Origin: an uncultured Ignavibacteriaceae bacterium
GTDB taxonomy: Bacteria; Bacteroidota; Ignavibacteria; Tepidaquicellales; Tepidaquicellaceae
Assembly (NCBI GenBank): GCA_964615795.1
Contig: CAZTQR010000005.1
Location: 12,025 to 76,024 of the forward strand
DNA length: 64,000 nt
Reading direction: 5' to 3'
Every line of letters begins with the position of its first letter. Position 1 is the stretch's first letter. Made by a program: the position numbers and the translations under genes. This document shows, piece after piece, positions 1 through 35,592 of the stretch. A model generated the notes under the pieces. The model was not told where the DNA came from. It worked only from the letters and a program-made list of their open reading frames with translations, and did no database searches.

Positions 1-3000
1 CCAAACAGCAGACTGACTACTGGCTGTCTGAACTCGAAGGCCGGCTTCCCGACCTTGACCTTCCTTTCGACAGGCCGAGACAGCCGAATCAGACATTCAG
101 CGGCGACACCGTTTACTTTGAAATTGAAGGAGAGCTTGCAGACAAACTGAAGACGGTTGCAAAAGAACACGGGGCTACAATGTTTGCGACTCTTCTTACC
201 TGTTACCTGATCTTTCTCCGCAAGCACACTGACAACGATGAAGTGCTGACAGGAATACCGGCGGCGGGAAGAGGTTTTCCCGGTTTTGAGAATGTAATGG
301 GATACTTCATCAATCCCCTTTCAATACGTGTCCGCCTTTCAGGCGAGATGAGCTTTTCCGAAGCGCTGTCATCAATAAAGAAGAAGATCCTCAATGCAAT
401 TGACAATCAGGACATTCCGTTTCAGGTGATAGTTGACAAACTTATGCACGGGAGAGACCCGTCGCGGAGCCCGGTCTTTCAGACCTTCTTCGGACTGCAG
501 AGAATGCAGGGCGATGCCCCGCTTCAGGAACTCATTGTTCCCGGCAACGGCAAGGCCGTGATAGACTGGGCCGGCATGAAGCTCAGGCCTTATCACATCA
601 GACAGCAGGAAGGACAGTTTGATATCACGGCAGAGTTTGCCGAAGGAAGCGAAGTCTTCTCGGGGGCGTTCAAATACAACACTGATCTGTTCGACAGGAA
701 GACGGTTGAAGAAATGGCCGATCATTTTCTTTGCATGCTGAATCAGATTGCAGAAGACGCGGGAAAGAGCATTTCAAAATTGAGTCTGGCCACAAAGGAT
801 GAATGTGATCTGATATTGAACAAGTGGAACAATACTGCAAAGGAATTCCGGGGCATTGACCTCATAGACAGGATGTTTGAGAAAGCTGTGCAGAAGTTTC
901 CCGGAAACATTGCAGTAGAATTTGAAGGGAATAAACTGAACTTTGAATTTCTGAACCGCAGGTCAGATGCGCTTGCTTCGAAACTTGGCTCAATGGGATT
1001 TGGCAGAGGGTCATTTGCGGCAATTTGCGTAGAGAGGTCTCCGGAAATGGTGATCTCAATGCTTGCCGTTCTCAAGGCAGGCGGCGCATACATTCCCGTT
1101 GATCCTGATTATCCTTCCGACAGAATTGACTACATGATAAGCAATTCAAACGCACAAGTGCTTATCACACAAAAGAAGTTCGGATCATTCGGGAAACAGA
1201 ATGACGCTATTCTGTTTACTGATGAATTTGATACTCTTCCTTATGAAAACTTTTCCGGACCTGACGGCAGGACTGCAGAAGATCCCGCATACGTTATCTA
1301 TACCTCAGGTTCCACAGGACAGCCCAAGGGTGTTGCGGTGCCGCACAGAGCTCTCGCAAATCACATGCTGTGGATGAAAGAGGCGGCAGAGTTCACATCC
1401 GCAGACAGCGTTCTGCAAAAGACACCATACAGTTTCGATGCATCCGTCTGGGAATTCTATCTCCCCCTGCTCAACGGCGGAAGGCTTGTACTTGCAAAGC
1501 CCGAGGGCCACATGGATACTGACTATCTCGTGAAGCTAACGGCTGAAGCGGGAATAACGCATATTCAGTTCGTACCTTCATTGCTGAAGTTATTCATTGA
1601 CGAACCTGCAGTAACCTCATGCAATTCGCTGAAGTTTGTGTTCAGCGGCGGTGAAGCGCTCACGAAGGACCTTGCCGACTCTGTGTTTGCTAAATTGCCT
1701 TCACGGCTTGTAAATCTTTACGGCCCCACTGAAGCGGCAATTGACTCAACGTTCTATGAATGCATGCGCGGCAACGTACCAAAGACGATCCCTATCGGAA
1801 CTCCGATCAGCAATATGAAAGCTGTCGTGGTTGACAAAACGCTGCAGATCCAGCCGCCCGGACTCGCGGGAGAATTACTGCTTGGAGGTGAAGGCATAGC
1901 GCTTGGCTATCTCAACAATCCCGGGCTCACCGATGAGAAGTTTACAGAGGACAATATTCTGCACACCAGCGGAAAACTCTACAGGACCGGCGACAAAGCA
2001 AAATTCAACAGAGAGGGTCTGCTCGAATATCTCGGAAGAATTGATCATCAGGTCAAGTTCAGAGGATTCAGGATAGAGCTGGGCGAGATTGAAGCCCGTC
2101 TCAGGAAGATGCACGGCGTGAAGGATGCGTACGTTGATATTCGGAAAGATAGTGCAGGCCGCGACATACTTGCGGCATACATAATTCCTTCGGAAGCGAA
2201 AGAAGACACCGCACGGGATTTGAAGAGCGGATTGAGAAAGTTCCTTCCTGAGTATATGGTGCCGGGACACTTCATTTTGCTTGAAGCATTCCCGGTTCTG
2301 CCCAACGGTAAGATTGACCGGAAGAACTTACCTGACCCCGAAACGGGCATTTCCAGGCAGTCGGAGTTCAGGGAAGCAAAGGGTGCAGTTGAAGAGAAAC
2401 TTCTTAAGATCTGGGAAGAAGTTCTCGGTGTGAAGGGAATAGGTGCGGACGATAATTTCTTCGAACTGGGAGGGGATTCGATACTGAGCATACAGATCAT
2501 TTCAAGGGCCGCGAAAGAGGGCATACGGATAACGCCTAAGCAGGTGTTCTCTCACCAAACGATCGCAGAACTCGCAAGCGAAGCGCAGGGAACTTCAGCA
2601 TCGGGCTCAGGCATGGAGCCTTACGGAGATCTTGTGCTTTCGCCCGTCCAGGAGAGGTTTCTCACAAAGAAAATGAAGAACCGTTCACATTACAACCACT
2701 CGCTTCTGATATCAGCACCCAAAGGCCTTGATATTGAGTCACTGTCGAAAGCATTGGAATTTGTTTTGGAGAGGCACGACCTTTTGAGAATGAAACTCAG
2801 TGAGAACGGTAAGGCATTTATTCCGCGCGAAACACCCGGAATATCTTTTGCGGAGTTTGACTTCAGCGGACTTGACTCTGTCACTGCTGAAGAATCTCTT
2901 ACCGGAGAAAGGGACAGACTGAACACGCTTATTGACCTGTCCTCAGGAAGACTCCTCAATGCCGCCTGCTTCAGAATGCCCGGAGGCAGTGACAGAATTC

Positions 3001-3998
3001 TTTTCAATGTTCATCACGTATGCATAGACGGAGTTTCATGGAGGATCTTTCTTGAGGACTTTATTGACGCATACAAAACCGCAGTTACAGGAAAGGAGAT
3101 CCGGCCCGCACAAAAGGGCACATCATTCCGCGAATGGACTTCAATGCTCAGCGCTTATGCAAGAGAAGGGAAAGCAGATATTCACATACCTTTGTGGAAT
3201 GCGGTTACGGATGACAGCAGTACTGGCGCGCTCACAGGAAACGATCTTTCCTCAAACACTTATTCAAACTCTGCAAGGATAACGGCTGAACTTGATGAAG
3301 AAAGTACAAGGCGACTTCTGAATGACGCAAACAGGGCATATAACACCGGCATCAACGACCTGCTGATATCTGCGCTTGTCCTGGCATTCGGAAAATCAAC
3401 CGGAGAGCATTCGCTGGCGATTGATCTTGAAGGACACGGAAGAGATGACATGGCTGAGGATGCCGATATCTCAAATACGATAGGATGGTTTACTTCTATC
3501 TATCCCGTAAAATTAAACGTGACTTCGGGGGTGGAGGAAACAATAAAGTCAGTAAAAGAAACACTGAGCAGGCACTCCCCTGCCGGCATAACTTACGGAA
3601 TGCTGAGGCACATGAACAGCGGCGTTTCAAAAGTGAGGGAAACAGATCCGAAGATCGTATTCAATTACCTCGGTCAGTTCAAGGACGAAATAGCCGAGGG
3701 GTGGAAATTCTCACATGACTCACTTAAACTGCATACCGGCGAAGATGAATTGCGGCAACATGCCATCGAAATGAATTCAATGGTTGCATCTTCGAAGTTC
3801 ATACTGGACATTGACTATCCGTCGCTCAGCATTGCAGAAGCCGCGGCCGCAGAGTTTTCCCGGAATTACATTGAATCGCTTAAGGAGATCATTGAACACT
3901 GCACAAACGCAGGAGGCACTACATACACCGCATCCGATTTTACCGCTTCCGGACTTGATCAGCAGGAACTTGACAATCTGTTATCAGAGCTGAACTGA
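1..3998 (+). CDS. Non-ribosomal peptide synthetase, 5'-truncated by the window edge: C(partial)-A-T-E
   Basis: The frame of the 180..3998 ORF stays open back to nt 3 (KQQTDYWLSELEGRLPDLDLPFDRPRQP.., a C-domain C-terminal half). A-domain cores: YTSGSTGQPKG, FDASVWEF, NLYGPTEA, YRTGDKA, GRIDHQVKFRGFRIELGEIE, NGKIDRK. PCP: GGDSILSIQ. The C-terminal domain has HHVCIDGVSWRIF (epimerisation-type HHxxxDG). The acidic tail DQQELDNLLSELN resembles a COM donor helix. Confidence 0.93.
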   Translation, partial: KQQTDYWLSELEGRLPDLDLPFDRPRQPNQTFSGDTVYFEIEGELADKLKTVAKEHGATMFATLLTCYLIFLRKHTDNDEVLTGIPAAGRGFPGFENVMGYFINPLSIRVRLSGEMSFSEALSSIKKKILNAIDNQDIPFQVIVDKLMHGRDPSRSPVFQTFFGLQRMQGDAPLQELIVPGNGKAVIDWAGMKLRPYHIRQQEGQFDITAEFAEGSEVFSGAFKYNTDLFDRKTVEEMADHFLCMLNQIAEDAGKSISKLSLATKDECDLILNKWNNTAKEFRGIDLIDRMFEKAVQKFPGNIAVEFEGNKLNFEFLNRRSDALASKLGSMGFGRGSFAAICVERSPEMVISMLAVLKAGGAYIPVDPDYPSDRIDYMISNSNAQVLITQKKFGSFGKQNDAILFTDEFDTLPYENFSGPDGRTAEDPAYVIYTSGSTGQPKGVAVPHRALANHMLWMKEAAEFTSADSVLQKTPYSFDASVWEFYLPLLNGGRLVLAKPEGHMDTDYLVKLTAEAGITHIQFVPSLLKLFIDEPAVTSCNSLKFVFSGGEALTKDLADSVFAKLPSRLVNLYGPTEAAIDSTFYECMRGNVPKTIPIGTPISNMKAVVVDKTLQIQPPGLAGELLLGGEGIALGYLNNPGLTDEKFTEDNILHTSGKLYRTGDKAKFNREGLLEYLGRIDHQVKFRGFRIELGEIEARLRKMHGVKDAYVDIRKDSAGRDILAAYIIPSEAKEDTARDLKSGLRKFLPEYMVPGHFILLEAFPVLPNGKIDRKNLPDPETGISRQSEFREAKGAVEEKLLKIWEEVLGVKGIGADDNFFELGGDSILSIQIISRAAKEGIRITPKQVFSHQTIAELASEAQGTSASGSGMEPYGDLVLSPVQERFLTKKMKNRSHYNHSLLISAPKGLDIESLSKALEFVLERHDLLRMKLSENGKAFIPRETPGISFAEFDFSGLDSVTAEESLTGERDRLNTLIDLSSGRLLNAACFRMPGGSDRILFNVHHVCIDGVSWRIFLEDFIDAYKTAVTGKEIRPAQKGTSFREWTSMLSAYAREGKADIHIPLWNAVTDDSSTGALTGNDLSSNTYSNSARITAELDEESTRRLLNDANRAYNTGINDLLISALVLAFGKSTGEHSLAIDLEGHGRDDMAEDADISNTIGWFTSIYPVKLNVTSGVEETIKSVKETLSRHSPAGITYGMLRHMNSGVSKVRETDPKIVFNYLGQFKDEIAEGWKFSHDSLKLHTGEDELRQHAIEMNSMVASSKFILDIDYPSLSIAEAAAAEFSRNYIESLKEIIEHCTNAGGTTYTASDFTASGLDQQELDNLLSELN

Positions 3999-4005
3999 AC
4001 AACAA

Positions 4006-7000
4006 ATGAGCACCGATACAAAAAAGAACATAGAGGACATTCTTGAGCTTACTCCGATGCAGCAGGGTATGCTTTTCCACACGCTGTACAACGAGGGCTC
4101 AGACGCTTACATAGAACAATTCTGCCTTGACCTTGAGGGCAGGATAGATTCCGCAAAGTTCAGGCAGGCATGGTCTGAAGTTGTTTCGCGGCATCAGGCG
4201 CTGAGATCTTCATTCCGATGGAAAGGAATTCAGAAACCTGTTCAGATAGTAGAGAAGGAATCACAACTGAACTGGAGAGATGAGGACTGGTCCGGAATGA
4301 AGATGGACGACGCTGAAGACAAGTTCACAGCGCTTAGGCTGGAAGACAGGAAGAACACCTTCGATATGGAGAAGTCCCCTGTCATGAGGTTTGTCCTGAT
4401 CAGGCTTTCTGAAGAAAGGCACAGACTGCTGTGGACATTCCACCACATACTCATGGACGGCTGGAGCTATCCGGTGATAATCGGAGAAGTGATCAGAGTT
4501 TACAGGGCTTTGCTTGAGGGCAGTGAACCTCAGCTTCCCAAACCCGTTCCCTACAAGAGCTACATAGCATGGCTCTCAAAGCAGGACAAACAGGCGGCTG
4601 AGAACTTCTGGAAGAAAGAGCTGTCCGGCTTTTCATCACCTTCGCGCTTCAAAGGCATCACGGGCGGCAAGGATCAGCTCGAGTCCATCGGCACGCATGA
4701 AGGGATTGAATATCTTTCCGAAGAACAATCATCTTTGCTTGCCGAGTTTGCAAGAAAGAATCAGATCACGCTCAGCACTCTCATTCAGGCGGCATGGGCA
4801 TACGTTATCTCCGCCTATTCAGGCGAAAGCGATGTGATCTTCGGCGGCACGATCTCGGGAAGGCCTCCCGCATTGCCTGAGGTTGAAAGAATGGTGGGGT
4901 TATTCATTAATACTCTTCCGGTAAGGATCAGGATAAATAATGAAGAAGCCGTAACAGCATGGCTGAAGTCAATACAGGACAAGTTTGCCGAGCGCGAACA
5001 ATTCTCCTACAGCTCGCTCGCGGATATTCAGTCATGGAGCCCGCTTCCAGGAAACACCCGGCTCTTTGACAACATACTGGTATTTGAGAACTACCCGAGC
5101 GATCCGGCTTTGGAAGATGCTTCCTCTCCGGTAAAGATTGCGCACATTTCGGCATTCGAGAAAACGAACTTTCCGATTGCCCTTCTTATTGCGCCCGGAA
5201 AACGGCTGAAGCTGACGATCGCTTATGATGAAAATGTCTTCTCGCATGATTTTGTGGAAGGAGTGCTGAACTCTCTTGTCGGCACGCTTAGCTCGATCAT
5301 CGCCGAAAGCACAAAGAAGGTCGGCGATATTACAATGCTCACTCCGCAGATGACAGAGAGGATCATCAATGAATGGAATTCCACCACCGCAGACATACCG
5401 GACGAATACTCCGTCAAAGCTCTTTACGAATCACTCACTTCCGGATTCGGCGACGCGACAGCGCTTGAGTTCGGCTCTCAGTCAGTTACTTATAAAGAAC
5501 TGAATGAAAGATCGAACAGTCTGGCAAATTATCTTGTGTCTCTCGGCGTAACTGAGGATTCATTCGTAGGGATAAGCATTGAGCGCTCACCTGAGATGAT
5601 AATAGCGCTGATCGCGATATTCAAGGCAGGCGCGGCCTATCTTCCGCTCGACAAATCTTATCCGGCGGACCGCATTGAATACATGATGGAAGACTCCGGA
5701 GTGAAGTTCGTGCTGACGAAGCGCTCAGACTCCGGCAAACTACCCGGCCGTGAGAGCGTGAAGTTCATTTATGTGGATGAGATCACCGGGGAACTTGAGT
5801 CTCATGGCACCGGGTCTCCGGCAATAAGCCCGTCTCCTGCAAGCGCGGCATACATGATCTACACTTCCGGATCGACGGGAAGGCCTAAAGGCGTGATCAT
5901 GCACAATCTTGCGCTCGTCAATCTGCTCAACTGGCAAATGAACGGACAAAAGTTTGAGCGGGGGCTCACTACCCTTCAGTTCACCACGCTCAGCTTTGAT
6001 GTTGCGTTCCAGGAAATATTTTCCACCCTTCTGACGGGCGGGAAGCTCGTGATACTCAGGGAGGAAGAAAGAAAAGACCTCTCAATCGTGCTCGAGACAC
6101 TCAGGACAAGGAAAGTTCAAAGGTTGTTCCTCCCCTTCATTGCACTTCAGGAGATCGCCGAACTTCACTCTTCAGCAAAGGACAAGATGCTCTACCTGCG
6201 CGAAGTGATGACGGCGGGTGAACAGCTTCAAAATACAAATGCAATTAAAGCTCTCTTTAAGGGACTTCCCGATTGCACATTCACAAATCAGTACGGCCCG
6301 ACCGAGGCGCACGTTGTAACCGCTTACACGCTTGAAGGTGATCCCGATCATTGGGTTTACAATGCGCCGATAGGCAGGCCCGTTTACAATACAAAGATCC
6401 ATATTCTCAATTCTGCAATGAAGCCTGTACCGCCCGGAGTGAACGGCGTTCTTTACATTGGCGGAATACAGGTAGCCCGCGGATACAACAGGAAGCCGGA
6501 GCTCACGGGTGAGAAGTTCATTCGCGATCCGTTCAGCAGTTCAGGATCTGACAGGATTTACAATACGGGCGACATTGCCAGATATCTTCCCGACGGTAAC
6601 ATTGAGTTTCTTGGCCGCGCCGACAATCAGATCAAATACCGCGGTTACAGAATTGAGCTCGGTGAAATTGAATCAGTGCTCAACGGCATAAGTAAAGTGA
6701 GCACATCAGCCGTTGTGATAAGAGACACTCCTTCCGGAGAAAAGCGTCTTGCAGCTTATGCCGTGCTGAAGCCAGGAGAAGAGTGCACAGCATCTGAACT
6801 CAAATCGCTTCTGTCTGAATCATTGCCTGACTTCATGCTTCCGGCTGATTATGTGTTTCTGAATGAGATGCCGCTTCTTCCGAGCGGAAAGGTTGACCTG
6901 CGATCACTTCCTGAACCCGAAAGGCAGACTGCCGGCGGAACTGACGGATACAAAGAGCCGAAGACTGAACTTCAACTGCAGTTGGTAAGGATCTGGGAAA

Positions 7001-8064
7001 AAGTTCTCGGCGTAAAGAATATCGGGATAAGCGACAACTTCTTTGACCTCGGCGGACACTCGCTTCTTGCTCTCAGATTGTTTGGTTACATCGAGAAGCT
7101 TACCGGCAAGAAGCTTGCGATCTCAACATTGTTTGCACACCCCACAATTGAACAGCTTTCGCAAATACTTATGACAGAAGGGTGGCGGCCGACATGGAAA
7201 TCACTTGTCGCAGTGAAGCCCGGAGGCTCCCGCCTTCCGTTCTTCTGCGTACCGCCGGGAGCAGGCACCGCACTGCATTTTCAGGCGCTTGTTAAGTATG
7301 TTAATGAAGACCAGCCGTTCTATGTGCTTGAATCGGTAGGGCTCGACGGCAAAGAGCCGCCTCATGACAATGTTGAAGAAATGGCGGAGCATTATGTGAA
7401 AGAGATAAGGACACTTCAGCCCGACGGGCCTTATCTCATAGGCGGAAGATGTTTCGGCGGCAGAGTGGTGTTTGAAATGGCACAGCAATTCATGAGGCAG
7501 GGGCAGGAAGTGGCATTGCTTGCGATCTTCGACACATGGCCTCCTTTCCGCGAAATGCCAAAGGCCTATGTGCCTCCAAAGAGAGACTTTAACCATTTTG
7601 TGAAGAGTTCACTTGCGCATATGAAATCGGGAGATTTCTGGCATGTAGTAAATAACTATGCGGGCAATAAGATTGGCAAAGCGACATGGAAGATCAAGAA
7701 CAAGCTGAAGTACACTTTCAGCAGTGAGAAAAAGAAGCTCTACAACAGGATCATGCTTTTGCATTTTGCGGCACAGGACAGGTACGTTGCCAAAAAGTAT
7801 CCGGGCAGGATCACCTTGATAGAATGCGCAACATTCAAACCGGAATTCAGAAAGGGTTGGGAGGAGCTGGCCGGCGGCGGGTTTGAGACATACGTCGTTC
7901 CTGATACTGATCATAAGACTATTGTTAGGGAGCCGAAGATCCGCGACTTTGCCGAGAAGCTGAATTTTGTGCTGGAGAAGACTCATAAAGAGATCGAATC
8001 ACGCGGCAGATCCAACGGAGCGTCAAACACTGTTGCCTCCCGCAAGAGTGTTGAAAACGCCTGA
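4006..8064 (+). CDS. Non-ribosomal peptide synthetase, terminal module C-A-T-TE (TE with Cys nucleophile)
   Basis: The N-terminus LTPMQQGMLFH and HHILMDGWS mark a C domain. A-domain cores: YTSGSTGRPKG, FDVAFQE, NQYGPTEA, YNTGDIARY, GRADNQIKYRGYRIELGEIE, SGKVD. PCP: GGHSLLAL. The C-terminal alpha/beta-hydrolase TE has the elbow G-G-R-C-F-G-G (TGT at 7450-7452), Asp in AIFDTWPP and His in PDTDHKT. The gene starts 7 nt after the upstream NRPS stop. Confidence 0.93.
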   Translation: MSTDTKKNIEDILELTPMQQGMLFHTLYNEGSDAYIEQFCLDLEGRIDSAKFRQAWSEVVSRHQALRSSFRWKGIQKPVQIVEKESQLNWRDEDWSGMKMDDAEDKFTALRLEDRKNTFDMEKSPVMRFVLIRLSEERHRLLWTFHHILMDGWSYPVIIGEVIRVYRALLEGSEPQLPKPVPYKSYIAWLSKQDKQAAENFWKKELSGFSSPSRFKGITGGKDQLESIGTHEGIEYLSEEQSSLLAEFARKNQITLSTLIQAAWAYVISAYSGESDVIFGGTISGRPPALPEVERMVGLFINTLPVRIRINNEEAVTAWLKSIQDKFAEREQFSYSSLADIQSWSPLPGNTRLFDNILVFENYPSDPALEDASSPVKIAHISAFEKTNFPIALLIAPGKRLKLTIAYDENVFSHDFVEGVLNSLVGTLSSIIAESTKKVGDITMLTPQMTERIINEWNSTTADIPDEYSVKALYESLTSGFGDATALEFGSQSVTYKELNERSNSLANYLVSLGVTEDSFVGISIERSPEMIIALIAIFKAGAAYLPLDKSYPADRIEYMMEDSGVKFVLTKRSDSGKLPGRESVKFIYVDEITGELESHGTGSPAISPSPASAAYMIYTSGSTGRPKGVIMHNLALVNLLNWQMNGQKFERGLTTLQFTTLSFDVAFQEIFSTLLTGGKLVILREEERKDLSIVLETLRTRKVQRLFLPFIALQEIAELHSSAKDKMLYLREVMTAGEQLQNTNAIKALFKGLPDCTFTNQYGPTEAHVVTAYTLEGDPDHWVYNAPIGRPVYNTKIHILNSAMKPVPPGVNGVLYIGGIQVARGYNRKPELTGEKFIRDPFSSSGSDRIYNTGDIARYLPDGNIEFLGRADNQIKYRGYRIELGEIESVLNGISKVSTSAVVIRDTPSGEKRLAAYAVLKPGEECTASELKSLLSESLPDFMLPADYVFLNEMPLLPSGKVDLRSLPEPERQTAGGTDGYKEPKTELQLQLVRIWEKVLGVKNIGISDNFFDLGGHSLLALRLFGYIEKLTGKKLAISTLFAHPTIEQLSQILMTEGWRPTWKSLVAVKPGGSRLPFFCVPPGAGTALHFQALVKYVNEDQPFYVLESVGLDGKEPPHDNVEEMAEHYVKEIRTLQPDGPYLIGGRCFGGRVVFEMAQQFMRQGQEVALLAIFDTWPPFREMPKAYVPPKRDFNHFVKSSLAHMKSGDFWHVVNNYAGNKIGKATWKIKNKLKYTFSSEKKKLYNRIMLLHFAAQDRYVAKKYPGRITLIECATFKPEFRKGWEELAGGGFETYVVPDTDHKTIVREPKIRDFAEKLNFVLEKTHKEIESRGRSNGASNTVASRKSVENA

Positions 8065-8067
8065 ACG

Positions 8068-8760
8068 ATGCCGCTCCTGAGCAATGAGATACAAATTCTG
8101 TGCTCGGATATTTCCCGCCCTTTGGAAAGTCCTGAAGACTCTGCAGGCCTGCTTGATGAGTCTGAGAAAGAAAGATACCGCAGGTTCAGGTTTGATGCTG
8201 ACAGGCTGAGGTTCCTTCACGGAAGATCGATCCTGAAGAAACACGCATCAAGACTTCTTGAAGCAGATCCAAATGAGATGATGATCTCATTCAATCCTCA
8301 CGGAAAACCGCTGTTCAGCAATCAGCCCCTCAAGTTCAGCATTACGCACTCCGGCAATGTTACTGCCGTGGCATTCTCGCATACGATAGAAATCGGCCTT
8401 GATTCCGAATGCATCAGGGAAATTGATGACATCAGCGGACTGTCGCTTAGATTTTTTTCGGATGCGGAGAACCAATATCTGTCAGGATTAAGTGACAAAG
8501 AAGTGCTGAAAGAAAACTTCTTTCGTGTATGGAGCGCAAAAGAAGCTTATGTGAAGGCGGCAGGAACGGGGCTGTCAACGGTGCTCAGCGATTTCTCGGT
8601 TGTGGACAGCAACGGACATTTCAGGCTCATGATGAATAATAACATTCAGCCATCTGCAGTCTTGCATGAGCTTTCGCTTGGAGAAGGCCATCGCTCATTC
8701 CTTTGCGCTTTGGATCCTCCCGAAGAACTGCAAATCAGCATTGAACAGATCACCTTGTGA
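8068..8760 (+). CDS. 4'-phosphopantetheinyl transferase, Sfp type
   Basis: 230 aa. Motifs FSITHSGNVTAVAF and WSAKEAYVKAAGTGL (W-x-x-KEA-x-x-K). The ATG follows 3 nt after the NRPS stop on the same strand. Confidence 0.85.
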   Translation: MPLLSNEIQILCSDISRPLESPEDSAGLLDESEKERYRRFRFDADRLRFLHGRSILKKHASRLLEADPNEMMISFNPHGKPLFSNQPLKFSITHSGNVTAVAFSHTIEIGLDSECIREIDDISGLSLRFFSDAENQYLSGLSDKEVLKENFFRVWSAKEAYVKAAGTGLSTVLSDFSVVDSNGHFRLMMNNNIQPSAVLHELSLGEGHRSFLCALDPPEELQISIEQITL

Positions 8761-8829: not shown

Positions 8830-10371
8830 TTACAGCGGAATGTTGCCGTGTTTCTTTCTTGGATTTGTATCAACTTTGTTCTCAAGCAGTTCAAAGTAGT
8901 AAATAAGCTTCTTTCTCGTTTGGCTCGGCTCTATCACATCGTCAATAAATCCCCTCTCGGCCGCGAGATAAGGATTGGCGAACTTCTGAGTGAACTCCGC
9001 AACCTTATCGGCAAGAGCCTTCACCTTGTCTTCCGAAGCATCTATTTCCTTCTTGAAAATAATTTCCGCCGCACCTTGCGCACCCATGACTGCGATCTCC
9101 GCAGTCGGCCATGCAAGATTGATATCCCCTCTTACGTGTTTAGAGTTCATAACGTCGTATGCACCTCCGTAAGCCTTTCGCAGGATCACGGTCACTTTCG
9201 GAACGGTCGCTTCGCAAAATGCATACAGAAGTTTTGCACCGTGCCTGATAACTCCGCGCCACTCCTGATCAGTGCCCGGCAGAAACCCGGGTACATCTTC
9301 AAGCACAAGAAGAGGAATGTTGAATGCGTCGCAGAATCTCACAAACCTCGCGCCCTTGATGGATGAATTGAGGTCAAGCACGCCTGCAAGCACAAGCGGC
9401 TGATTGGCAACTATGCCGATGCTCCTGCCGTTGAGCCTTCCGAATCCGACCACAAGGTTCTCTGCATATTCCTTATGAACTTCAAAAAATGAATCTTCGT
9501 CTATCAATGCATTGATGACTTCTTTTATGTCATAAGGTTTGTTGGGATTTTCCGGAATGAATGTATCAAGGAATGCAAGGTCCTTCTCTCCGCTGTTGTA
9601 TTCATACACAGGCGCAGTATCCATGTTGTTGAGAGGTATGTAAGATACCAGCTGTCTTATCATCTCATAAGCTTCCGCTTCATTATCAGCGGTGAAATGA
9701 CTGACTCCGCTCTTCACAGCGTGCGTCCTTGCACCGCCCAGGTCATCAAATGACACTTCTTCATGCGTAACTGCCTTTACAACATTCGGGCCTGTCACAA
9801 ACATGTATGATATCTTGTCAACCATCAGAACAAAGTCGGTGATTGCAGGTGAATAAACCGCGCCGCCCGCGCAAGGCCCGACTATCATGGATATCTGAGG
9901 CACAACACCGCTTGCCAGAGTATTCCTGAGGAAGATGTCGGCATATCCTCCGAGGGAAACAACCCCTTCCTGTATTCTCGCACCGCCGCTGTCGTTAATA
10001 CCTATCACGGGAACACCGATCTTCATTGCAAGGTCCATGAGCTTGACGATCTTCTTTGCATGGTACTCGGCAAGCGAACCGCCGTAGATCGTAAAGTCCT
10101 GTGAAAATACGCAAACATCCCTGCCGCCGATCTTGCCTGTCCCTGTTATGACGCCGTCAGTGTAAAATCTCTGCTTGTCCAGGTCAAAGTCATGCGACTG
10201 ATGCCTTACGAATATGTCTGTTTCGTGGAAGCTGCCTTCGTCAAGCAGCAGGTTGATTCTCTCACGTGCTGTAAGTTTGCCTTTTTTGTGCTGCGACTCA
10301 ACTTTCTTTACGCCGCCGCCAAGCATCGCCTCTTCACGTTTGGATCTCAGTTCTTCAATTTTCGAGTTCAT
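8830..10371 (-). CDS. Acyl-CoA carboxylase carboxyltransferase subunit (propionyl-CoA carboxylase beta / methylmalonyl-CoA carboxyltransferase 12S-like)
   Basis: 513 aa. [20 protein letters not shown].., [30 protein letters not shown], and a duplicated crotonase-like carboxyltransferase fold are typical of PccB/MmdA. Confidence 0.88.
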
Positions 10372-10464
10372 TTTTTCTTCAGATGTTTAGCTTAGTTCGA
10401 TTATACAAATATGTTGCTGTGAAACTCATTTGATATGAAACACTTTCATTAACGCATAGAAAGA

Positions 10465-11829
10465 TCAGATCCTCCTGATCTCAGCTCCAAGCCCTCTCAG
10501 CTTTTCATCAATGCTCTCGTATCCCCTGTCAATATAGACTGCTCCGTTCACAAGCGATTCACCCGTCGCTATCACACCCGCAATAAGGTATGAAAATCCT
10601 GCCCTCAGGTCAGGCACGTTTATTTCGGCGCCATGAAACGGCGTCGGACCTTTTACGACTGCGCTGTGATAGTAGTTTGTGTTGGCGAACCTGCACTCCA
10701 ACCCTCCAAGACATGTATTGTAAAGCTCGATCTCGGCTCCCATTTTCCTGAGCTCGTTCACATATCCGAACCTTTCTTCATAAACCGTTTCATGCACGAT
10801 TGATATGCCGTTTGCCTGCGTCATCAGGATCACAAAGGGTTGCTGCCAGTCTGTCATGAATCCGGGATGCACATTGGTCTCAATTGCAATTGACTTGAGT
10901 TCTCCTTCATAGAAAAACCGGATCCCGTTTTCTTTCACTTCATACTTTCCGCCGACCCTTCTGACTGCGTTGAGAAAAGTGATCAGATCATCCTGCACTG
11001 CATTCTCAATGAATACATCGCCTTTGGATGCAATTCCGGCACAGGCAAATGAAGCCGCCTGATTCCTGTCCGGTATTACATAGTGCTCCGCACCGTCAAG
11101 CTTCTCAACACCCTCAATAGTGATCTTACGGTCAGTGCTGATCTCAATTATGGCGCCCATCTTCTGGAGGAACTTTATGAGATCCAGTATCTCAGGTTCA
11201 ACAGCCGCATTTGTCAGGATTGTTCTGCCTTTGGCAAGAGAGCTTGCAATTATGATGTTCTCCGTAGCGCCAACGCTCGGATACTCCAGTCTTATGTTTG
11301 TGCCTTTCAGCTTGTCCGCTTCAAGAAGAAAGTAATCTTCCTTCACCGTCACCTTACAGCCCAGTTTCTCGAGAGAATCAATGTGAAAGTTCACAGGCCG
11401 TGACCCGATCCTGCATCCTCCCGGTACCGGTATCATTGCCTTGCCTGTCCTGTGAAGAAGCGGTCCGGCAAGAAGAATTGCTATGCGTGTCTTGTTCCCA
11501 AGTTCGCAGTCAATGCTGTTGGAAGTAATGTTACCGGTGGTTATTTCGAGTATATCCCGGTCAACTCTTATTTCGCTGCCAAGTGACCCGCAGATCTGAT
11601 TTGTCAGAATAAGGTCGCTTATCCTGTTCGGTGAATTGTGAAGTATGCTCTTCTTGTCTGAGAGAAGTGAAGCAACAACCAGTTTGGATGCTGAGTTTTT
11701 GGCTCCGCTCACTTTCACCGTGCCGTTGAGCGGATTGCCGCCTTTGATCAGAAATCTGGAATTGACTTCATCCGTATGCAAGCCGTTTGTGCCTAAGCTT
11801 TTGTCGTATTTGGCAGTCAGTCTTTCCAA
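10465..11829 (-). CDS. murA: UDP-N-acetylglucosamine 1-carboxyvinyltransferase
   Basis: [24 protein letters not shown] near the N-terminus. The catalytic-loop Cys lies in [16 protein letters not shown]. The C-terminus is [21 protein letters not shown]. The N-terminus may be over-extended (454 aa). Confidence 0.9.
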
Positions 11830-12770
11830 AATCCCATCTCGCCGAATTTCTTCACCCTCATATCAAGCAGTTTGTCTTTCTTAAGTTTTGAGACCTGATT
11901 CAGCTCCTCGATGAGCGCACGTTTCAGCAACTCTGCCGCCATGTCATGGTCTCTGTGCGCTCCTCCCGGCGGCTCCTCAATAATCCTGTCAATTATTCCG
12001 AGCTTCAGCATGTCTTCTGATGTGAGCTTCAGGGCTTGTGCCGCCTGCTCCTTGTAGTCCCAGCTTCTCCAGAGAATTGACGAACATGACTCCGGTGATA
12101 TCACCGAGTACCAGCAGTATTGCAGCATCAGCACCCTGTCCCCTACACCGATTCCAAGGGCCCCGCCTGAAGCACCTTCACCTATGATTGCCACAATTAC
12201 AGGTACCTGAAGTCTTGACATTTCAAACAGATTCCGCGCAATCGCTTCCGCCTGGCCGCGCTCTTCGGCCTCAATTCCCGGATAAGCTCCCGGCGTATCT
12301 ATGAGTGTGATCACGGGTTTGCCAAACTTCTCCGCAAGCTTCATGAGGCGAAGCGCCTTCCTGTAGCCCTCCGGATTAGGCATGCCGAAGTTTCTGTACA
12401 GATTCGATTTCGTGTCTCTTCCTTTCTGCTGTCCGATGATCATGACTGTCTGTCCATCAATATCCGCGAAGCCGCCGACAATCGCCTTGTCGTCGCCATA
12501 GTGCCTGTCACCGTGAAGCTCAATGAAGTTCTCGGTCATCAGGTAAATGTAGTCGAGTGAATAAGGCCTTTCGGGATGCCGTGCAAGCTGAACTATCTGC
12601 CACGGTGTCAGCTTGGAGAATATTTCTGATCTGAGCTTGTTGACCTTGTCTTCAAGTATTCCGATCTCATCGGAAATGTCAAACCTTGAGGACATGCTTC
12701 TCATTTCCTCGATCTTCTTCTCGAGCTCTATGATGGGAAGTTCAAAATCAAGCGTGGTCTGTACGGCCAT
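11817..12770 (-). CDS. accA: Acetyl-CoA carboxylase carboxyltransferase alpha subunit
   Basis: 317 aa. Motifs [40 protein letters not shown] and [10 protein letters not shown]. It overlaps murA by 13 nt. Confidence 0.9.
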
Positions 12771-23821: not shown

Positions 23822-24396
23822 TTACGGAAATTACCTATATGGCCTGAAAACTTAAAGCCAATACTGACAATTTGACTTAGATCCAATCAAGAGGGTATCA
23901 CAACAGGTACGATATCAAACTCGGCTCTTTATAACGTTTAGAGTTGTCCAGATCAAAGGAGCGGTTTCGGAGTTGGATATTGGGATCACAAAGATCACCT
24001 ATTAGGAGAGTTCTGGCTGGCAATTGTATTAAAGAGAAGCGGCAGTCTGAAGGAAATTAAACAAGATCAAGGATAGCAAAGCACGTCAAGGACGTTAATA
24101 CCTGACTCTTGATTTACTATTCTTTCATTTCGAAATCAAAGTATTTCATTTCTATCTTATCGGAAAAGATCATTGACCGGACTGTTTGGCTATGTATTTT
24201 CCCTTGCTTCGGGGTCAATTCATCTTCGGACTGCAAATACTGGCAACTAAGCAAACCTTCATATGCATTTAGAGAGAATTCAAAGATTCTTCATTTCGTT
24301 TCTTCGCATGGCTGAAGCACAGCTCATCCTTTAACTTACAATTTAAATAGAAGTCATCTGCCTGAACATCCATACTTCACGACTCTAGCACTCCTT

Positions 24397-25236
24397 TCAC
24401 CTTTTGGGAACCATCTGATAAACTTTCACATAATCAATCTCCATTACATATGGCTCTGAATCATCTACTTTGAAGCCATTAGCTTCCCAGTCCTTGACAG
24501 CCACATTCGCAATTATATAAAGTGGGGCAGTCGGGATACCTTTTGTATCCTCATAAACAGTATTGCCGTTCAGTTTCCATTTCATGATATTAGGTAAACA
24601 CTCAAATGACCAAACCATCCACTCATTGGAAAAATCACCCGTTAGTTCCTTTCCCTCATTGTAATAGAATGGGGCAGTTTTACCTTCATATATGCCACTA
24701 TAGTTTGGATAATCTATGCCCCAATGGTGATTGCATGATATTTTGTTCTCATTAATTCCAAAGTATTCAAATACGTCAATTTCCGGCAATCCGGGCCTTT
24801 GCTTTGCAACAAGCCAGAACGCAGGCCAAAATCCCTTCTTGAACGGGAATCTCGTTCTGATTTCCCATTTGCCGTAAGCTTGCGTGAAAGTTCTTGGAGT
24901 GTTGATCATCCCCGATGTGTATTCAAACTGCTTTTCACTTTCAGAATCCTTTCCATAAACTGATTCTTTCTTCGCAATTATTTTCAGCACTCCATCCTCC
25001 GCCACAATGTTTCTGGTCTGATACCACTGCACCTCCTTGTTTGACCAAATCGTCTTATTGCCCATATCAAAGTGCGTAAGCCACCTTGTGGTATCAAAAT
25101 TGTCAAAGTTATCTTCAAATGTGATCTTCCATTCATATTCAATATCTGACTCGTCGCTCAGAAATGAATTTGATACTATCGGGAGCAACCCTGCAAAAGT
25201 CAGGATAAAGAATGCCGCAATCATTGCTCTTCTCAT
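24397..25236 (-). CDS. Glycoside hydrolase family 16 (beta-glucanase/laminarinase-like), secreted or membrane-anchored
   Basis: The GH16 catalytic motif E-I-D-V-F-E is in LPEIDVFEYFG. The signal/anchor is MRRAMIAAFFILTFAGLL. I prefer the ATG at 25236 (the track start at 25323 adds 29 non-signal residues). Confidence 0.8.
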   Translation of the reverse strand: MRRAMIAAFFILTFAGLLPIVSNSFLSDESDIEYEWKITFEDNFDNFDTTRWLTHFDMGNKTIWSNKEVQWYQTRNIVAEDGVLKIIAKKESVYGKDSESEKQFEYTSGMINTPRTFTQAYGKWEIRTRFPFKKGFWPAFWLVAKQRPGLPEIDVFEYFGINENKISCNHHWGIDYPNYSGIYEGKTAPFYYNEGKELTGDFSNEWMVWSFECLPNIMKWKLNGNTVYEDTKGIPTAPLYIIANVAVKDWEANGFKVDDSEPYVMEIDYVKVYQMVPKR

Positions 25237-25611
25237 GGTATTTTTTGATTCAGTTTTTGCATAAATATTTGACTTATGTCCGGCACAAGGTGTTGATGGA
25301 ATTGACACTGAACTCAATTGCATACTCTGCTGACAGTATCTGTTATCTCAAAATCAGGCCGCTCATTCTGGAATTTGCGCACATTCGAAAGTACATATCA
25401 CAATGAAGTTTCTGTCAAATGTCATTTCACTCTTGCGATCGTCTGACCAGTTAGCTCAGATCAATAAGCATGCACCGGGTCTTCCCAATGCAAATGTGCT
25501 TGCTCTGTGAAGCTCATGGACATTTTCTGATAACAGACAAATTCAAATTAACTTTTTGACCTGAAAACAGAAACATATATGTTTGCAACTTTCGTCCGAT
25601 GCTATGAGACT

Positions 25612-26397
25612 CTATTGGATCGACCTTGAGATGCAAACCAGTTCATCAACAAGCATACTGTCCCTTATGAACAACAACTCGAATCCATTCTTTTCAAGGA
25701 GTTTCCTGAAATTATGCTTATCAAATCCCCAGAAGTGTTCCATTGGCCTTACCAAATGCCAGTTAGCCAAGCCTGTTCTTGCCCTCAAACTCGATGCTGA
25801 CGGGGTCTTCACAGCAAATATTCCATTTGGTTTAAGATACTTTCTGACCGAGAACAAGAAGTTTTCAATTTCCGGAATGTGTTCAATAACATGCTTCGCT
25901 GAAATGCAGTGGAAAGAGTGTTCATCAATTCGGGCTGCGTCGAGAGAGTTAGCACAAACAAATTCAACATTGTCCCTCTTAAACCTCTCCGAAAGCTCAT
26001 TTGAATAATCGATACCAAGAACTTTCCAACCCCTGCTTTTTGCTTCATATAGAACATCAGCCTCACCACACCCGAAATCAATAATGCTCTTACCCGGAGA
26101 GTACTTCTCTATGAGATTGAAAAACATTCTCAGCCGGTTCTTTCTGAAGGTTAGTATGCTTCTGATTTTTGCTATTTTCGGATTTTTATCTACCGTACTA
26201 TATCTTATCTCATAATATCTATTGTAATATTCGTTTAATTCTTTAACGGTTGGCATTGGACTGCACCAATTCAGTTTGCAATCCAGACATTCAATCACGG
26301 AATAGGGTGATCCGGCACTCGAATCTAAGGGCTTTCCTTTATTTAAGAGATTCTTCGAGCTGCATGCTGGACAACTTCGATACAATTCCCCGATCAC
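25612..26397 (-). CDS. Class I SAM-dependent methyltransferase with N-terminal Cys4 zinc ribbon
   Basis: CPACSS..CLDCKLNWC, then motif I IIDFGCGEADVL. 261 aa. It has a 4-nt overlap with the upstream GT4. Confidence 0.8.
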   Translation of the reverse strand: MIGELYRSCPACSSKNLLNKGKPLDSSAGSPYSVIECLDCKLNWCSPMPTVKELNEYYNRYYEIRYSTVDKNPKIAKIRSILTFRKNRLRMFFNLIEKYSPGKSIIDFGCGEADVLYEAKSRGWKVLGIDYSNELSERFKRDNVEFVCANSLDAARIDEHSFHCISAKHVIEHIPEIENFLFSVRKYLKPNGIFAVKTPSASSLRARTGLANWHLVRPMEHFWGFDKHNFRKLLEKNGFELLFIRDSMLVDELVCISRSIQ

Positions 26398-27548
26398 TTT
26401 ATTGTCTCCATTTTGCTTAAATAAAAATCATAATACTCTTCAGTATTCTTCTCAATATCAAATTTCTCTTTCACTGTATATATGGCATTGTTTTTGATTT
26501 CCTGAAGATTTTCTGAATTATCATAAATATAATTCAATTTATCCAAGAAATTCTTTTTATCATTTGCTTTGAATATGAACCCTGTAATTCCGTCCTGAAT
26601 GATCTCAGGTATCCCCCCTACGTCAGATGCAAGCACAATCTTTCTTTTGATCATCCCCTCAATTGTAACAAGACCAAACCCTTCCCATAAGGACGGTACA
26701 CATACAAGATCGGCAATTTCAATGAACGGCTCCGCATCTTCCCGGAATCCCAAGAGCTGCACTTGATCATTTAATTGCTCACTTCTGATTTGATTCTCAA
26801 TTTGCTTTCTCAAACTTCCTTCACCCAGAACAATAACCTTTGCTTTCCTTCTATTTTTCAAGAACTCCTTTGCAGAATTAAGAAAAAACGAGTGGCCTTT
26901 CTGGCGCTCAAGCCTTCCTGAGACTAAAATTACAAAATCGTCCCCTGACAAACCATATTTCCTTCTGAGTTTCAAAATACCTTCTTCGCTGAGCACATAT
27001 TTCTCCTTTTCAATGTTAACACCATTGTAAATGACTTTGGTGATCTTGTCAAAATTCTTGCTTCTGTTAACAAGATATCTCCTTACGACATCCGAAATTG
27101 AGATCAAATACGATCCGGAGTATCTGACAACGGCATTGTCAATCCTATCGAAAACAGACACCTTATCAATATCAGCACCTCCATGATGCGTTGAATAGTT
27201 ATGGCATGTTGAGATGATGAGCGGCACATTTGTCTGCCTTGCTGAGATTCTTCCGTAGAAATCTGCCTTCTGAAGGTGAGTATGAACTATGTCGGGTCTA
27301 ATTTCGATCAGCATCTTCTTTAATTTGCCGAATATTCTGAAGTTCACAAGGCCCTTTTCCTTTAGATCAATAATTTTAATGCCAGCTTCTTTGAATTTGC
27401 TCATGTATTCGCCTGAATCCAAAGTAATCACAAATACATCAGTATTCGCTTTTCGTTTGAGATTGAGAACAATGTCCAGCAGCAGTACCTGCGCACCGCC
27501 AAGGCTTAGATTCGAAATTATGTGAACAATTTTGAGCTTTTCACGCAT
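26394..27548 (-). CDS. Glycosyltransferase family 4
   Basis: 384 aa. It has the GT-B N-terminus LSLGGAQV and the C-terminal EGFGLVTIEGM (E-x7-E region). Confidence 0.85.
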   Translation of the reverse strand: MREKLKIVHIISNLSLGGAQVLLLDIVLNLKRKANTDVFVITLDSGEYMSKFKEAGIKIIDLKEKGLVNFRIFGKLKKMLIEIRPDIVHTHLQKADFYGRISARQTNVPLIISTCHNYSTHHGGADIDKVSVFDRIDNAVVRYSGSYLISISDVVRRYLVNRSKNFDKITKVIYNGVNIEKEKYVLSEEGILKLRRKYGLSGDDFVILVSGRLERQKGHSFFLNSAKEFLKNRRKAKVIVLGEGSLRKQIENQIRSEQLNDQVQLLGFREDAEPFIEIADLVCVPSLWEGFGLVTIEGMIKRKIVLASDVGGIPEIIQDGITGFIFKANDKKNFLDKLNYIYDNSENLQEIKNNAIYTVKEKFDIEKNTEEYYDFYLSKMETIK

Positions 27549-28615
27549 TAGGAGATTCTGTTAATGATGTCTGCAATTTCACTTCCTACTTTGTCCCAGC
27601 TCCTGAATGAATTTGATTTGCGATATGCTGAATCAGAGAATCTTTCGATTCGGTCTCTGTCTTCAGCCAATATGCGAATCTTTTCAGCCAATGCCCTTGG
27701 ATTTGCCGGCTCCACCAAGTAGCCATTCGATCCGTCATCAACTATCTCCCTTAACGAAGGTATGTTGGATGCAACAACAGGTAACGCATGAGACATTGCT
27801 TCTGCTGCAACCATTCCATACCCTTCCCAAAGTGAAGGAAAAACAAATAATGAAGACGATCTGTAATATTCCTGTAGCTCTACGTCACATACTCTTCCCC
27901 TGAAGAATATTATATCCGCCAGGTCCAGTTCCGATATCTTCATCATAAGACTCTTGAAATAGTCATCTGAATTTTGCGTACCCCCGATTATGTTCAGAAT
28001 AAACTTCTCTTTGTCGAGATATCTGAAAGCTTCTATTAGGTGGATAAGACCCTTCCTTTTCTCAATTGTTCCAATGTAAAGCAACTTGACGATGTTATCT
28101 CCATTTGTGTCCGTCTTTCGGTTTATCGGGCTGAAAATGGCATCCAGTCCAGGTGGAACTACCGGGATATTGTAGCTCTTCAAGAGTGAATGTTCTTGCA
28201 GGTCATTTTTCGTTGCATTGCTGACAGTCATAACAAAGTCTGAATGTCTGATGAAAAACTCTTCAAACTTCGCTCTGAAAAACTCAGGATTCTCATTCCT
28301 TACCAAATGATGTACAATCATGAAGTAATAATGCTTCTTAAAGATTCTGTTCAAAATCATTGGGATCATGAAATGCAGGAATGCCGTATTACTCAATACA
28401 ATGATTGATTTCCTTTTTACTTTGCAGCTGACAAATAATCCGTGCATGATCTTGAAGAGCTTGTTTCGGTTTCCAAGCTTCGAAAACTTTCCGTTTCCTG
28501 CCAGATAAACGCCCTCTCTTCTTTCCTTTACATAGTTGTAAACAATGTTATGATACTTTATTCCCCCGGTAGGTGCTTCAGGAAATTCAGGCAAATAGAA
28601 ATAGATCCTCCTCAT
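27548..28615 (-). CDS. Glycosyltransferase family 4
   Basis: 355 aa. The C-terminus reads PSLWEGYGMVAAEAMSHALPVVASN. Confidence 0.85.
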   Translation of the reverse strand: MRRIYFYLPEFPEAPTGGIKYHNIVYNYVKERREGVYLAGNGKFSKLGNRNKLFKIMHGLFVSCKVKRKSIIVLSNTAFLHFMIPMILNRIFKKHYYFMIVHHLVRNENPEFFRAKFEEFFIRHSDFVMTVSNATKNDLQEHSLLKSYNIPVVPPGLDAIFSPINRKTDTNGDNIVKLLYIGTIEKRKGLIHLIEAFRYLDKEKFILNIIGGTQNSDDYFKSLMMKISELDLADIIFFRGRVCDVELQEYYRSSSLFVFPSLWEGYGMVAAEAMSHALPVVASNIPSLREIVDDGSNGYLVEPANPRALAEKIRILAEDRDRIERFSDSAYRKSNSFRSWDKVGSEIADIINRIS

Positions 28616-29610
28616 ATCACATGGTCTGTATCAAACAATCTGCTCTTACCTGACGAATAAATCTTGAGCATCTTTTTATATTGGTTCATTTTCTTCTTTT
28701 CAACATTCTTGTATCTGTTCCTGAATCTAAGGGTCCCCATCCGCACTAGTATTCCTGCAGCATTAATAAATCTAAGCATGCTTCTTTTCAGAAATCCAAA
28801 ATGCAGATACGAATAGATCATTTTGCTCCGGTTCAGGTGATAAAAGTAAACCTCTTCCCCCTTCTCACTTTTGACGCTACTGTTGCCGAAATGCCTGACT
28901 ATCAAACCATACAAACAAGCAATCTTGAATCCGGCACTTTGGAGTCTGTTTTGGAAGTCGGTGTCTTCGTAATACAGGAAATATCTTTCATCGAAACCGT
29001 TAAGGGCATTGAAAGCATCCGCTCTTACCAGAAGAAAAGCTCCGGTAATCCAATCAACATAGACGAATTTATAGATTTCGGCCTTATAGTTCCCAAAGTC
29101 ATACAGCCTGTTAAGCTTTCTCGCGTTACCGATTCCTGATGCCTCAAAAAACTCCCAAATGAGGTTCGGGAATTCATTGAAGTTGTATGCAATATTATCC
29201 TCAAAATCCATAAGCAAAGGTGAACACGCTCCCAATTCAATATTCTCTTCCATGAAAGAACATAACTTATGTATTACGTCGTCGACAATCACAATGTCCG
29301 GATTCACAAAGATCAGATACTTGCCTTTTGCAAACTTTGCTGCGCAATTACACCCTGCACCAAAGCCGTCATTTACATTCCTGAAAATGAATCTGACATT
29401 TGGGAACATGGCTGGGAAATTCTCTATATCTCGAATAGTCGAGTTATTATCAGCCACTATGATCTCATAGTCAATTTGCTTTGTGAATTCAATGATTGAC
29501 TTCAGGCAATCCTTCAAGTGATCCGCAGTATTGTAGTTCACTATGATGATTGTGACCTTCACATTATATCCTGAATTCTTAGCCTCTTCAATTTCGAAAT
29601 TGAGACTCAT
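28612..29610 (-). CDS. Glycosyltransferase family 2
   Basis: 332 aa. Motifs VTIIIVNYNTADHL, VADNNS, FVNPD and YYEDTDF. Confidence 0.85.
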   Translation of the reverse strand: MSLNFEIEEAKNSGYNVKVTIIIVNYNTADHLKDCLKSIIEFTKQIDYEIIVADNNSTIRDIENFPAMFPNVRFIFRNVNDGFGAGCNCAAKFAKGKYLIFVNPDIVIVDDVIHKLCSFMEENIELGACSPLLMDFEDNIAYNFNEFPNLIWEFFEASGIGNARKLNRLYDFGNYKAEIYKFVYVDWITGAFLLVRADAFNALNGFDERYFLYYEDTDFQNRLQSAGFKIACLYGLIVRHFGNSSVKSEKGEEVYFYHLNRSKMIYSYLHFGFLKRSMLRFINAAGILVRMGTLRFRNRYKNVEKKKMNQYKKMLKIYSSGKSRLFDTDHVI

Positions 29611-30575: not shown

Positions 30576-30577
30576 CG

Positions 30578-34420: not shown

Positions 34421-34437
34421 CGCGGGGTGTCAGGACT

Positions 34438-35589: not shown

Positions 35590-35592
35590 GAT

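Follow-up and report, generated by a model that had tools for sequence, protein, structure and literature searches.

An uncharacterised cysteine-nucleophile type-I thioesterase of the AB3403/BulbE subtype in a conserved lipodipeptide cluster of Ignavibacteria

What does it mean for the release of a peptide product when the chain-releasing thioesterase (TE) of a nonribosomal peptide synthetase (NRPS) carries Cys at the position usually held by Ser? This question is raised by a DNA stretch of 64,000 nucleotides from an uncultured Ignavibacteriaceae bacterium (GenBank assembly GCA_964615795.1, contig CAZTQR010000005.1, positions 12,025 to 76,024 of the forward strand), referred to here as the window and numbered from its first nucleotide. 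The terminal NRPS gene of the window (4006..8064, forward strand) is listed among its open reading frames as a protein of 1352 aa, with Pfam domains in the order condensation (C), adenylation (A), peptidyl carrier protein (PCP) and TE. The last of these domains is an uncharacterised type-I TE with a Cys nucleophile, belonging to the AB3403/BulbE subtype and located in a lipodipeptide cluster conserved in Ignavibacteria. On sequence and model evidence, we consider it quite probable that this domain is a functional chain-release enzyme of that subtype, in which Cys1149 is activated by His1303 and Asp1176, and in which the Cys is a trait of the lineage.

The TE spans aa 1059-1338 (7180..8019, forward strand) and is recognised by PF00975, by an AlphaFold2 model and by Foldseek as an alpha/beta hydrolase with a three-helix lid. 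It is fused directly downstream of the PCP (aa 992-1054; 6979..7167, forward strand; PF00550, E = 3e-14, motif GGHSL) in the last module of the operon, and it begins at about aa 1059-1067. The PF00975 match covers aa 1079-1194 with E = 3.5e-24 and 86.7 bits, against a cut-off of 26.4. The translation around codon 1149 reads PDGPYLIGGRCFGGRVVFEMAQQF, and the TGT codon of Cys1149 (7450..7452, forward strand) lies within the elbow G-R-C-F-G-G. In phmmer alignments with the sequences of the Protein Data Bank (PDB), the same column holds the catalytic Ser of Skyxy-TE (GWSLGS), NocB (GGWSFGG) and EntF (GYSLGG), and the Cys of AB3403 (GGWCFGG). The Cys that the original prediction had read at the elbow is thus confirmed by the profile, the phmmer alignments and the model. 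A shifted register of the nucleophile was also considered and is ruled out, because the elbow contains no Ser; the PDB alignments and the model all give Cys1149. The neighbouring Arg1148 is conserved in the immediate subclade and might, as a speculation, tune the pKa of the thiol.

The two remaining members of the triad are found at the places expected of a type-I TE. The acid is Asp1176 (GAC, 7531..7533, forward strand) in the motif AIFDTWPP, 27 residues beyond the nucleophile and after strand beta-6, the so-called position I. The base is His1303 (CAT, 7912..7914, forward strand) in the motif PDTDHKT, in the loop after the last core strand; its codon lies just past 7910, where the original prediction had ended the feature. 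In an alignment of 38 homologues the nucleophile column holds Cys in 23 and Ser in 13, while Asp is kept in 33 of the 38 and His in 30; within the alignment of the Cys clade (A2) the Asp1176 column is invariant. The AlphaFold2 model, built on this 38-sequence alignment, reached a predicted local distance difference test (pLDDT) score of 91.2 and a predicted template modelling (pTM) score of 0.84. In TE numbering, it sets Cys91 between strand 85-90 and helix 92-106, Asp118 at the end of strand 111-117, and His245 after strand 234-240, with a single lid of three helices (137-150, 153-179 and 183-201) between the latter two. The best Foldseek matches are 7crn, 6ece, 4zxh, 6ojc and the Pks13 TE (E from 1e-18 to 1e-15), with a probability of 1.00 to the Skyxy, Vlm2, AB3403, NocB and Pks13 TEs. 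The domain therefore combines a PF00975 match above threshold, the fold with its lid, a G-x-Nu-x-G elbow (Nu being the nucleophile), an acid after beta-6, a His after the last strand and fusion to a carrier protein, with Cys in place of the usual Ser. The model supports Cys1149-Asp1176-His1303 as a canonical type-I TE triad that looks active, which agrees with the earlier assumption that Asp and His are retained. The lid (about 65 aa) and the C-terminal half of the TE are too divergent for PF00975, yet the fold of the region (7180-8064) is predicted confidently.

A Cys codon at a position where Ser is usual could also arise trivially, either through misreading of TCT or AGT in sequencing or assembly, or through decay of the TE into an inactive remnant. 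The identical 1352-aa protein is, however, encoded on five contigs from four samples. TGT recurs in five other assemblies, namely on the related contigs L001-L004, which carry the identical protein, and on L006 (as well as on L008, from the same metagenome-assembled genome (MAG) as L006). In the orthologue of Ignavibacteria bacterium SSF19 (L005), with 93% protein identity, the nucleophile is encoded by the synonymous TGC. Codon differences between the two genes are 406 synonymous and 101 non-synonymous, and 85 and 18 within the TE region, a strong synonymous excess that argues against decay. The same is true of the full triad, which is kept in orthologous clusters whose polyketide synthase (PKS) is only 52-58% identical, and of the core motifs of the C, A and PCP domains, which are intact. 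Neither form of this explanation finds direct support; the nearest to it are some distant homologues in which the His is missing or the elbow has Gly, Ala or Asp, most of them second domains of tandem TE-TE proteins. We regard error and decay as very improbable. Codon counts and intact motifs show, at the level of the predicted proteins, that the terminal module is intact and its TE under purifying selection.

Cys is termed a "less common" nucleophile of TEs in the literature (PMC11298585; PMC6668435). The original prediction had compared the domain with the obafluorin and sulfazecin enzymes, ObiF and SulM, as the characterised cases. In these, the Cys is required for the closure of a beta-lactone and a beta-lactam, respectively, and the triad Asp has moved to the loop after beta-7 (position II), as in the type-II TEs RifR and RedJ; SulM additionally has a Gln-Cys-Asn motif and a positively charged pocket (PMC11298585; PMC6668435 for the shared features, PMC11298585 for SulM). 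The list of Cys enzymes is longer than these two. AB3403, the only other solved Cys-TE according to PMC11298585, keeps its Asp after beta-6. The TE of BulbE has the triad Cys961/Asp988/His1097 with the Asp on the beta-6 loop, and forms an indolylamide macrocycle (PMC11536411). The TE of polymyxin synthetase uses Cys for an ordinary macrolactamisation.

A release domain of the ObiF/SulM kind, forming a strained ring such as a beta-lactone or beta-lactam, would share with the window's TE its catalytic Cys. The other three of the four features tested (Asp at position II, the Gln-Cys-Asn motif and the substrate of the terminal A domain) differ. The Asp is at position I, at +27 after beta-6, and no Gly occupies that position; the elbow reads Arg-Cys-Phe rather than Gln-Cys-Asn. 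The hand-mapped code of the terminal A domain begins with DVQ and resembles that for an imino acid, not for a beta-hydroxy amino acid or diaminopropionate, and no terminal residue bearing a ring-closing nucleophile is expected here. ObiF1 and SulM are also absent from the PDB sequence matches at E <= 1 and from the best 50 fold matches listed. It is hardly credible that the domain closes such a ring, and the misfit with beta-lactone or beta-lactam chemistry that had been noticed earlier extends to Asp position, elbow motif and A-domain code alike. By sequence and predicted fold, the domain is of the AB3403/BulbE subtype, with Cys and an Asp after beta-6, and not of the structurally different ObiF/SulM subtype with its type-II-TE-like fold.

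One of the closest known systems is the termination module of Acinetobacter baumannii AB3403 (ABBFA_003403; PDB 4ZXH/4ZXI), which has the same C-A-PCP-TE order, a Cys elbow (GGWCFGG) and an Asp after beta-6. It is the third-best PDB match by sequence (E = 4e-16) and the fifth-best by fold. The identity is about 32% over the N-terminal half, and Trp precedes its Cys where Arg does here; judged from the aligned fragment and the identity ranks, it is not a near relative of the query's clade. AB3403 gives no functional analogy, as its product and release chemistry are likewise uncharacterised. The BulbE-TE of the bulbiferamide NRPS from Microbulbifer, compared by its description, shares the Cys/Asp/His triad with the Asp at +27 on the beta-6 loop, and its closest folds, the Pks13 TE and NocB TE, are also among the best fold matches of the window's TE. 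It differs in its 'second lid' insertion and in its substrate, a ureido-hexapeptide cyclised through the indole nitrogen of Trp, whereas a lipodipeptide without Trp is predicted here. The polymyxin synthetase TE (PMB TE), likewise compared by description, shares the catalytic Cys in lipopeptide release, but closes a macrolactam through the side-chain amine of diaminobutyrate (Dab) on a decapeptide. The best PDB match by both sequence (E = 5e-20) and fold (E = 3e-18) is the Skyxy-TE of the skyllamycin NRPS (PDB 7CRN/7DXO), also a type-I NRPS TE with its Asp after beta-6, which has a Ser nucleophile and acts as a bifunctional epimerase and cyclase on an undecapeptide.

How unusual the Cys is depends on the set of sequences in which it is counted. 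A HMMER scan of 1.84 billion cluster representatives (50% identity) returned 34,116 matches at E <= 1e-3, of which 1,679 reach E <= 1e-30. At the position aligned to Cys1149, the best 150 representatives divide into 80 with Cys, 64 with Ser and 6 with another residue. When 156 full-length TE domains are arranged in a neighbour-joining tree, the query falls into a clade of 44 tips, of which 41 have Cys, three are degenerate (Gly or Ala) and none has Ser. The nucleophile of the nearest neighbour agrees in 134 of 149 cases, while the whole tree requires at least 21 changes of state. Another 97 homologues came from a second profile search that started from the Cys clade, and of these 37 have Cys, 59 have Ser and one has Thr. 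The elbow GRCFGG itself is common to the homologues P0042 (82% identity), P0043 (50%) and P0001-P0007. Taken over several hundred related TEs, which end PKS as well as NRPS modules, Cys is found in about half.

The rarity of Cys claimed in the original prediction therefore holds among characterised TEs, and does not hold in the neighbourhood of the query. Free interchange of Ser and Cys, a possibility raised at the outset, is borne out in the wider family and is not seen in the query's own clade. Judged from these alignments and the tree, Cys is common and phylogenetically coherent near the query, is fixed in its lineage, and has been swapped with Ser many times at greater depth. On the same evidence, the Cys is no private innovation of this gene but a trait that is fixed and selected in a large environmental clade of TEs, and in this Ignavibacteria cluster in particular. 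Matches with a named source come from MAGs of Ignavibacteria, Bacteroidota, cyanobacteria, Anaerolineae, Nitrospiraceae, Binatia, Myxococcales and Thiomargarita. The profile search with the Cys clade for a named or characterised member listed 120 matches, all of them anonymous environmental or MAG proteins, and among the homologue matches listed none bears a name from a characterised pathway.

Two further features of the homologues were observed. Many of the proteins P0044-P0062 (e.g., P0045, at 589-861 and 979-1242, P0047 and P0048) have two tandem TE-like domains, the first usually with Cys or Ser and the second often degenerate at the elbow, where Gly, Ala, Asp or Gln stands in for the nucleophile, which suggests, from the residues present, that the second domain is non-catalytic or acts differently. 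In several homologues with a Cys elbow (P0023-P0025, P0029 with GYCMGG, P0013 and P0030) the column of the catalytic His holds Pro or Phe (LPV-YPA, PG-YFA). Either the alignment has shifted in the divergent C-terminal half, or these TE-like domains have no canonical base.

The substrate that reaches the TE can be predicted from the order of the genes. Related contigs give the operon as a PKS with a fatty acyl-AMP ligase (FAAL) domain, an NRPS of C-A(Gln)-PCP-E with a terminal epimerisation (E) domain, the terminal C-A(Pro-like)-PCP-TE and a phosphopantetheinyl transferase (PPTase). The PKS, of 2868 aa on these contigs, has the order FAAL, acyl carrier protein (ACP), ketosynthase (KS), acyltransferase (AT), dehydratase (DH), C-methyltransferase (cMT), ketoreductase (KR) and a second ACP. 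Because the DH looks active (HxxxGxxxxP and DxxxQ) and the KR is of the B type (LDD), the PKS is predicted to yield a 2-methyl-2-enoyl chain without a free beta-hydroxyl. The window begins inside the penultimate NRPS gene, which is 1549 aa long on related contigs; its 3' part (3..3998, forward strand, open from the window edge; Pfam AMP-binding, PP-binding and Condensation) encodes the (C)-A(Gln)-PCP-E portion. The E domain carries the motifs HHVCIDGVSW, EGHGRD and FNYLGQ in translation, and the Stachelhaus code of the A domain is DAWQFGLID(K), the code DAWQFGLIDK being that of Gln (PMC8313283).

In the terminal protein, the C domain (aa 10-453; 4033..5364, forward strand; PF00668, E = 4e-96) has the motifs HHILMDGWS and, near its N-terminus, LTPMQQGMLFH. 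From its motifs and its position after the E domain, we take it to be of the DCL type, with a D-configured donor. The following A domain (aa 480-962; 5443..6891, forward strand; PF00501 and PF13193) has the predicted specificity code DVQFMAQVVK, hand-mapped through the A4 and A5 motif anchors and unchanged in the orthologues on L005, L010 and L011. Compared with the Pro code, DVQLIAHVVK, seven of ten positions match, and Gln replaces His at position 322. The code resembles one for Pro or another imino acid, so that the predicted Pro-like assignment of the last module, already made in the original prediction, is retained on the hand-mapped code. A literature search for DVQFMAQVVK and its variants found no match. 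LgrA, which at 600 bits in the PDB search with this domain appeared as a strong lead towards Gly specificity, was rejected, because its score simply adds up two ordinary matches between A domains (284 + 314 bits). The predicted product of the line is N-(2-methyl-2-enoyl)-D-Gln-(Pro-like).

The cluster is kept beyond the nearest relatives. L010 and L011, the contigs with the divergent PKS mentioned above, retain the same architecture, both A-domain codes, the elbow GGRC[FL]GG and the motifs LLAIFDTWPP and VPDTDHKTIV, and L012, over the length covered by its contig, has the architecture and the Gln code in common with them. Each of the four related contexts also has a cytochrome P450 gene upstream of the FAAL-PKS, outside the window (L009, 3-389; L010, 4561-5805; L011, 8688-9929; L012, 7520-8773). 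From its conserved position, this P450 may be a tailoring enzyme of the cluster. In L009 and L010, a divergent gene of the BNR/sortilin-like type, about 950 aa long, stands between it and the PKS.

If the TE follows the mechanism of its family, the acyl-dipeptidyl chain would pass from the phosphopantetheine on Ser1019 of the PCP (7060-7062, forward strand) to Cys1149 by thioester exchange, and the acyl-S-enzyme would then be resolved by a nucleophile. Water would be the single most likely nucleophile, and the product would then be the linear acid N-(2-methyl-2-enoyl-fatty-acyl)-D-Gln-(Pro-like). Hydrolysis to this linear lipodipeptide acid is ranked first because the predicted substrate has no obvious good internal nucleophile. 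Its chance is put at only slightly better than even, because the tested Cys-TEs cyclise, the thioester favours weak nucleophiles, and the P450 could add a hydroxyl.

Alternatively, the Cys could be needed for a poor nucleophile: the acyl-S-enzyme would be resolved when the chain cyclises or is handed to an external amine or alcohol, and the lipodipeptide would be cyclic or conjugated. The internal nucleophile in such a reaction could be a hydroxyl installed by the P450 or the carboxamide of Gln. The example of this behaviour is the BulbE-TE, which has the same triad layout and needs its Cys for the indole nitrogen and for alcohol nucleophiles; with the Cys exchanged for Ser, it is restricted to hydrolysis or to cyclisation through a primary amine (PMC11536411). 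The same exchange in the polymyxin TE costs 60-fold in activity. Thioesters are more activated than oxoesters to aminolysis, and not to hydrolysis (PMC11536411). Relative to an oxoester, an acyl-thioester intermediate would shift the preference from water towards weak N- and O-nucleophiles, which makes release by cyclisation or transfer a real alternative. The strict fixation of Cys in the query's clade and the conservation of the P450 gene beside the cluster point the same way. The predicted chemistry of the PKS, however, leaves no beta-hydroxyl on the chain, the carboxamide is the sole nucleophile built into a chain of two residues, and the P450 has been assigned no substrate. The presence of Cys in about half of the related TEs also favours a trait of the lineage over a dedicated adaptation. 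We consider release to a nucleophile other than water possible, though less probable than hydrolysis.

Several points weigh against our preferred reading, that of a functional Cys-TE of the AB3403/BulbE subtype with hydrolysis as its leading outcome. The published Cys-TEs with a tested function (ObiF, SulM, BulbE and polymyxin) all cyclise, so that hydrolysis is a default assignment, and the conserved P450 upstream of the PKS could install a hydroxyl nucleophile. PF00975 covers the N-terminal half of the TE (profile positions 3-119 of 226), the geometry of the triad is judged from the topology of the model, that is, from canonical strand ends, and the all-Cys clade of the query is known from sequence and model alone. 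The original prediction had left the release chemistry open, and we agree, as the in silico evidence does not settle between hydrolysis and another nucleophile.

The last gene of the operon encodes the Sfp-type 4'-phosphopantetheinyl transferase (8068..8760, forward strand; PF01648 and PF22624), found at the same position in L001-L003, L005, L009, L010 and L011. It is followed by genes for carboxyltransferases, an EPSP-synthase-family protein, glycosyltransferases and enzymes of a sugar-metabolism type (transaldolase, HAD hydrolase and SIS domain). These were considered as tailoring genes and judged, from the encoded families, to be probably unrelated. Directly downstream of the PPTase (8830-12770, minus strand), the EPSP-synthase-family gene lies between genes for a Carboxyl_trans protein of 513 aa and an ACCA protein of 317 aa; the arrangement is kept in L001-L003 and L005 and is absent downstream of L010 and L011. 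A link of these carboxyltransferases to the supply of malonyl-CoA for the PKS is possible. Farther downstream, at 24000-36000 on the minus strand, lies an island of low GC content (0.39-0.40 vs 0.45-0.50 elsewhere) with genes for GT1, GT2 and GT4 glycosyltransferases, a methyltransferase, a MurJ-family flippase, a Wzy-like polymerase or ligase and a Wzz/GNVR chain-length protein. The island is a Wzx/Wzy-type polysaccharide locus, which was possibly acquired horizontally.

Cys-TEs are described as uncommon, and finding one is taken to signal unusual release chemistry. Their rarity is in part an effect of sampling, as Cys is the majority state and clade-structured in the metagenomic sequence space around this TE; Cys by itself is therefore a weak predictor of exotic chemistry. 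The position of the Asp, after beta-6 or after beta-7, is more informative, since it separates the AB3403/BulbE from the ObiF/SulM subtype. The compact and conserved four-gene operon, with its neighbouring P450, is tractable for heterologous expression, and may be a source of Cys-TEs for biocatalysis, as thioester acyl-enzymes accept weak nucleophiles. The finding would be an ordinary one if release is plain hydrolysis, and its interest rises if the release by the clade is non-hydrolytic. More tentatively still than for this single enzyme, the all-Cys clade, which ranges over Ignavibacteria, Bacteroidota and other mostly uncultured lineages, could be a class of release catalysts dedicated to non-hydrolytic chemistry, in which the acyl-thioester serves to join chains to poor nucleophiles; the product here would then be an enoyl-D-Gln-imino-acid lipopeptide, cyclic or conjugated, with a new scaffold. 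Such a compound would be, to our knowledge, the first assembly-line product known from Ignavibacteria.

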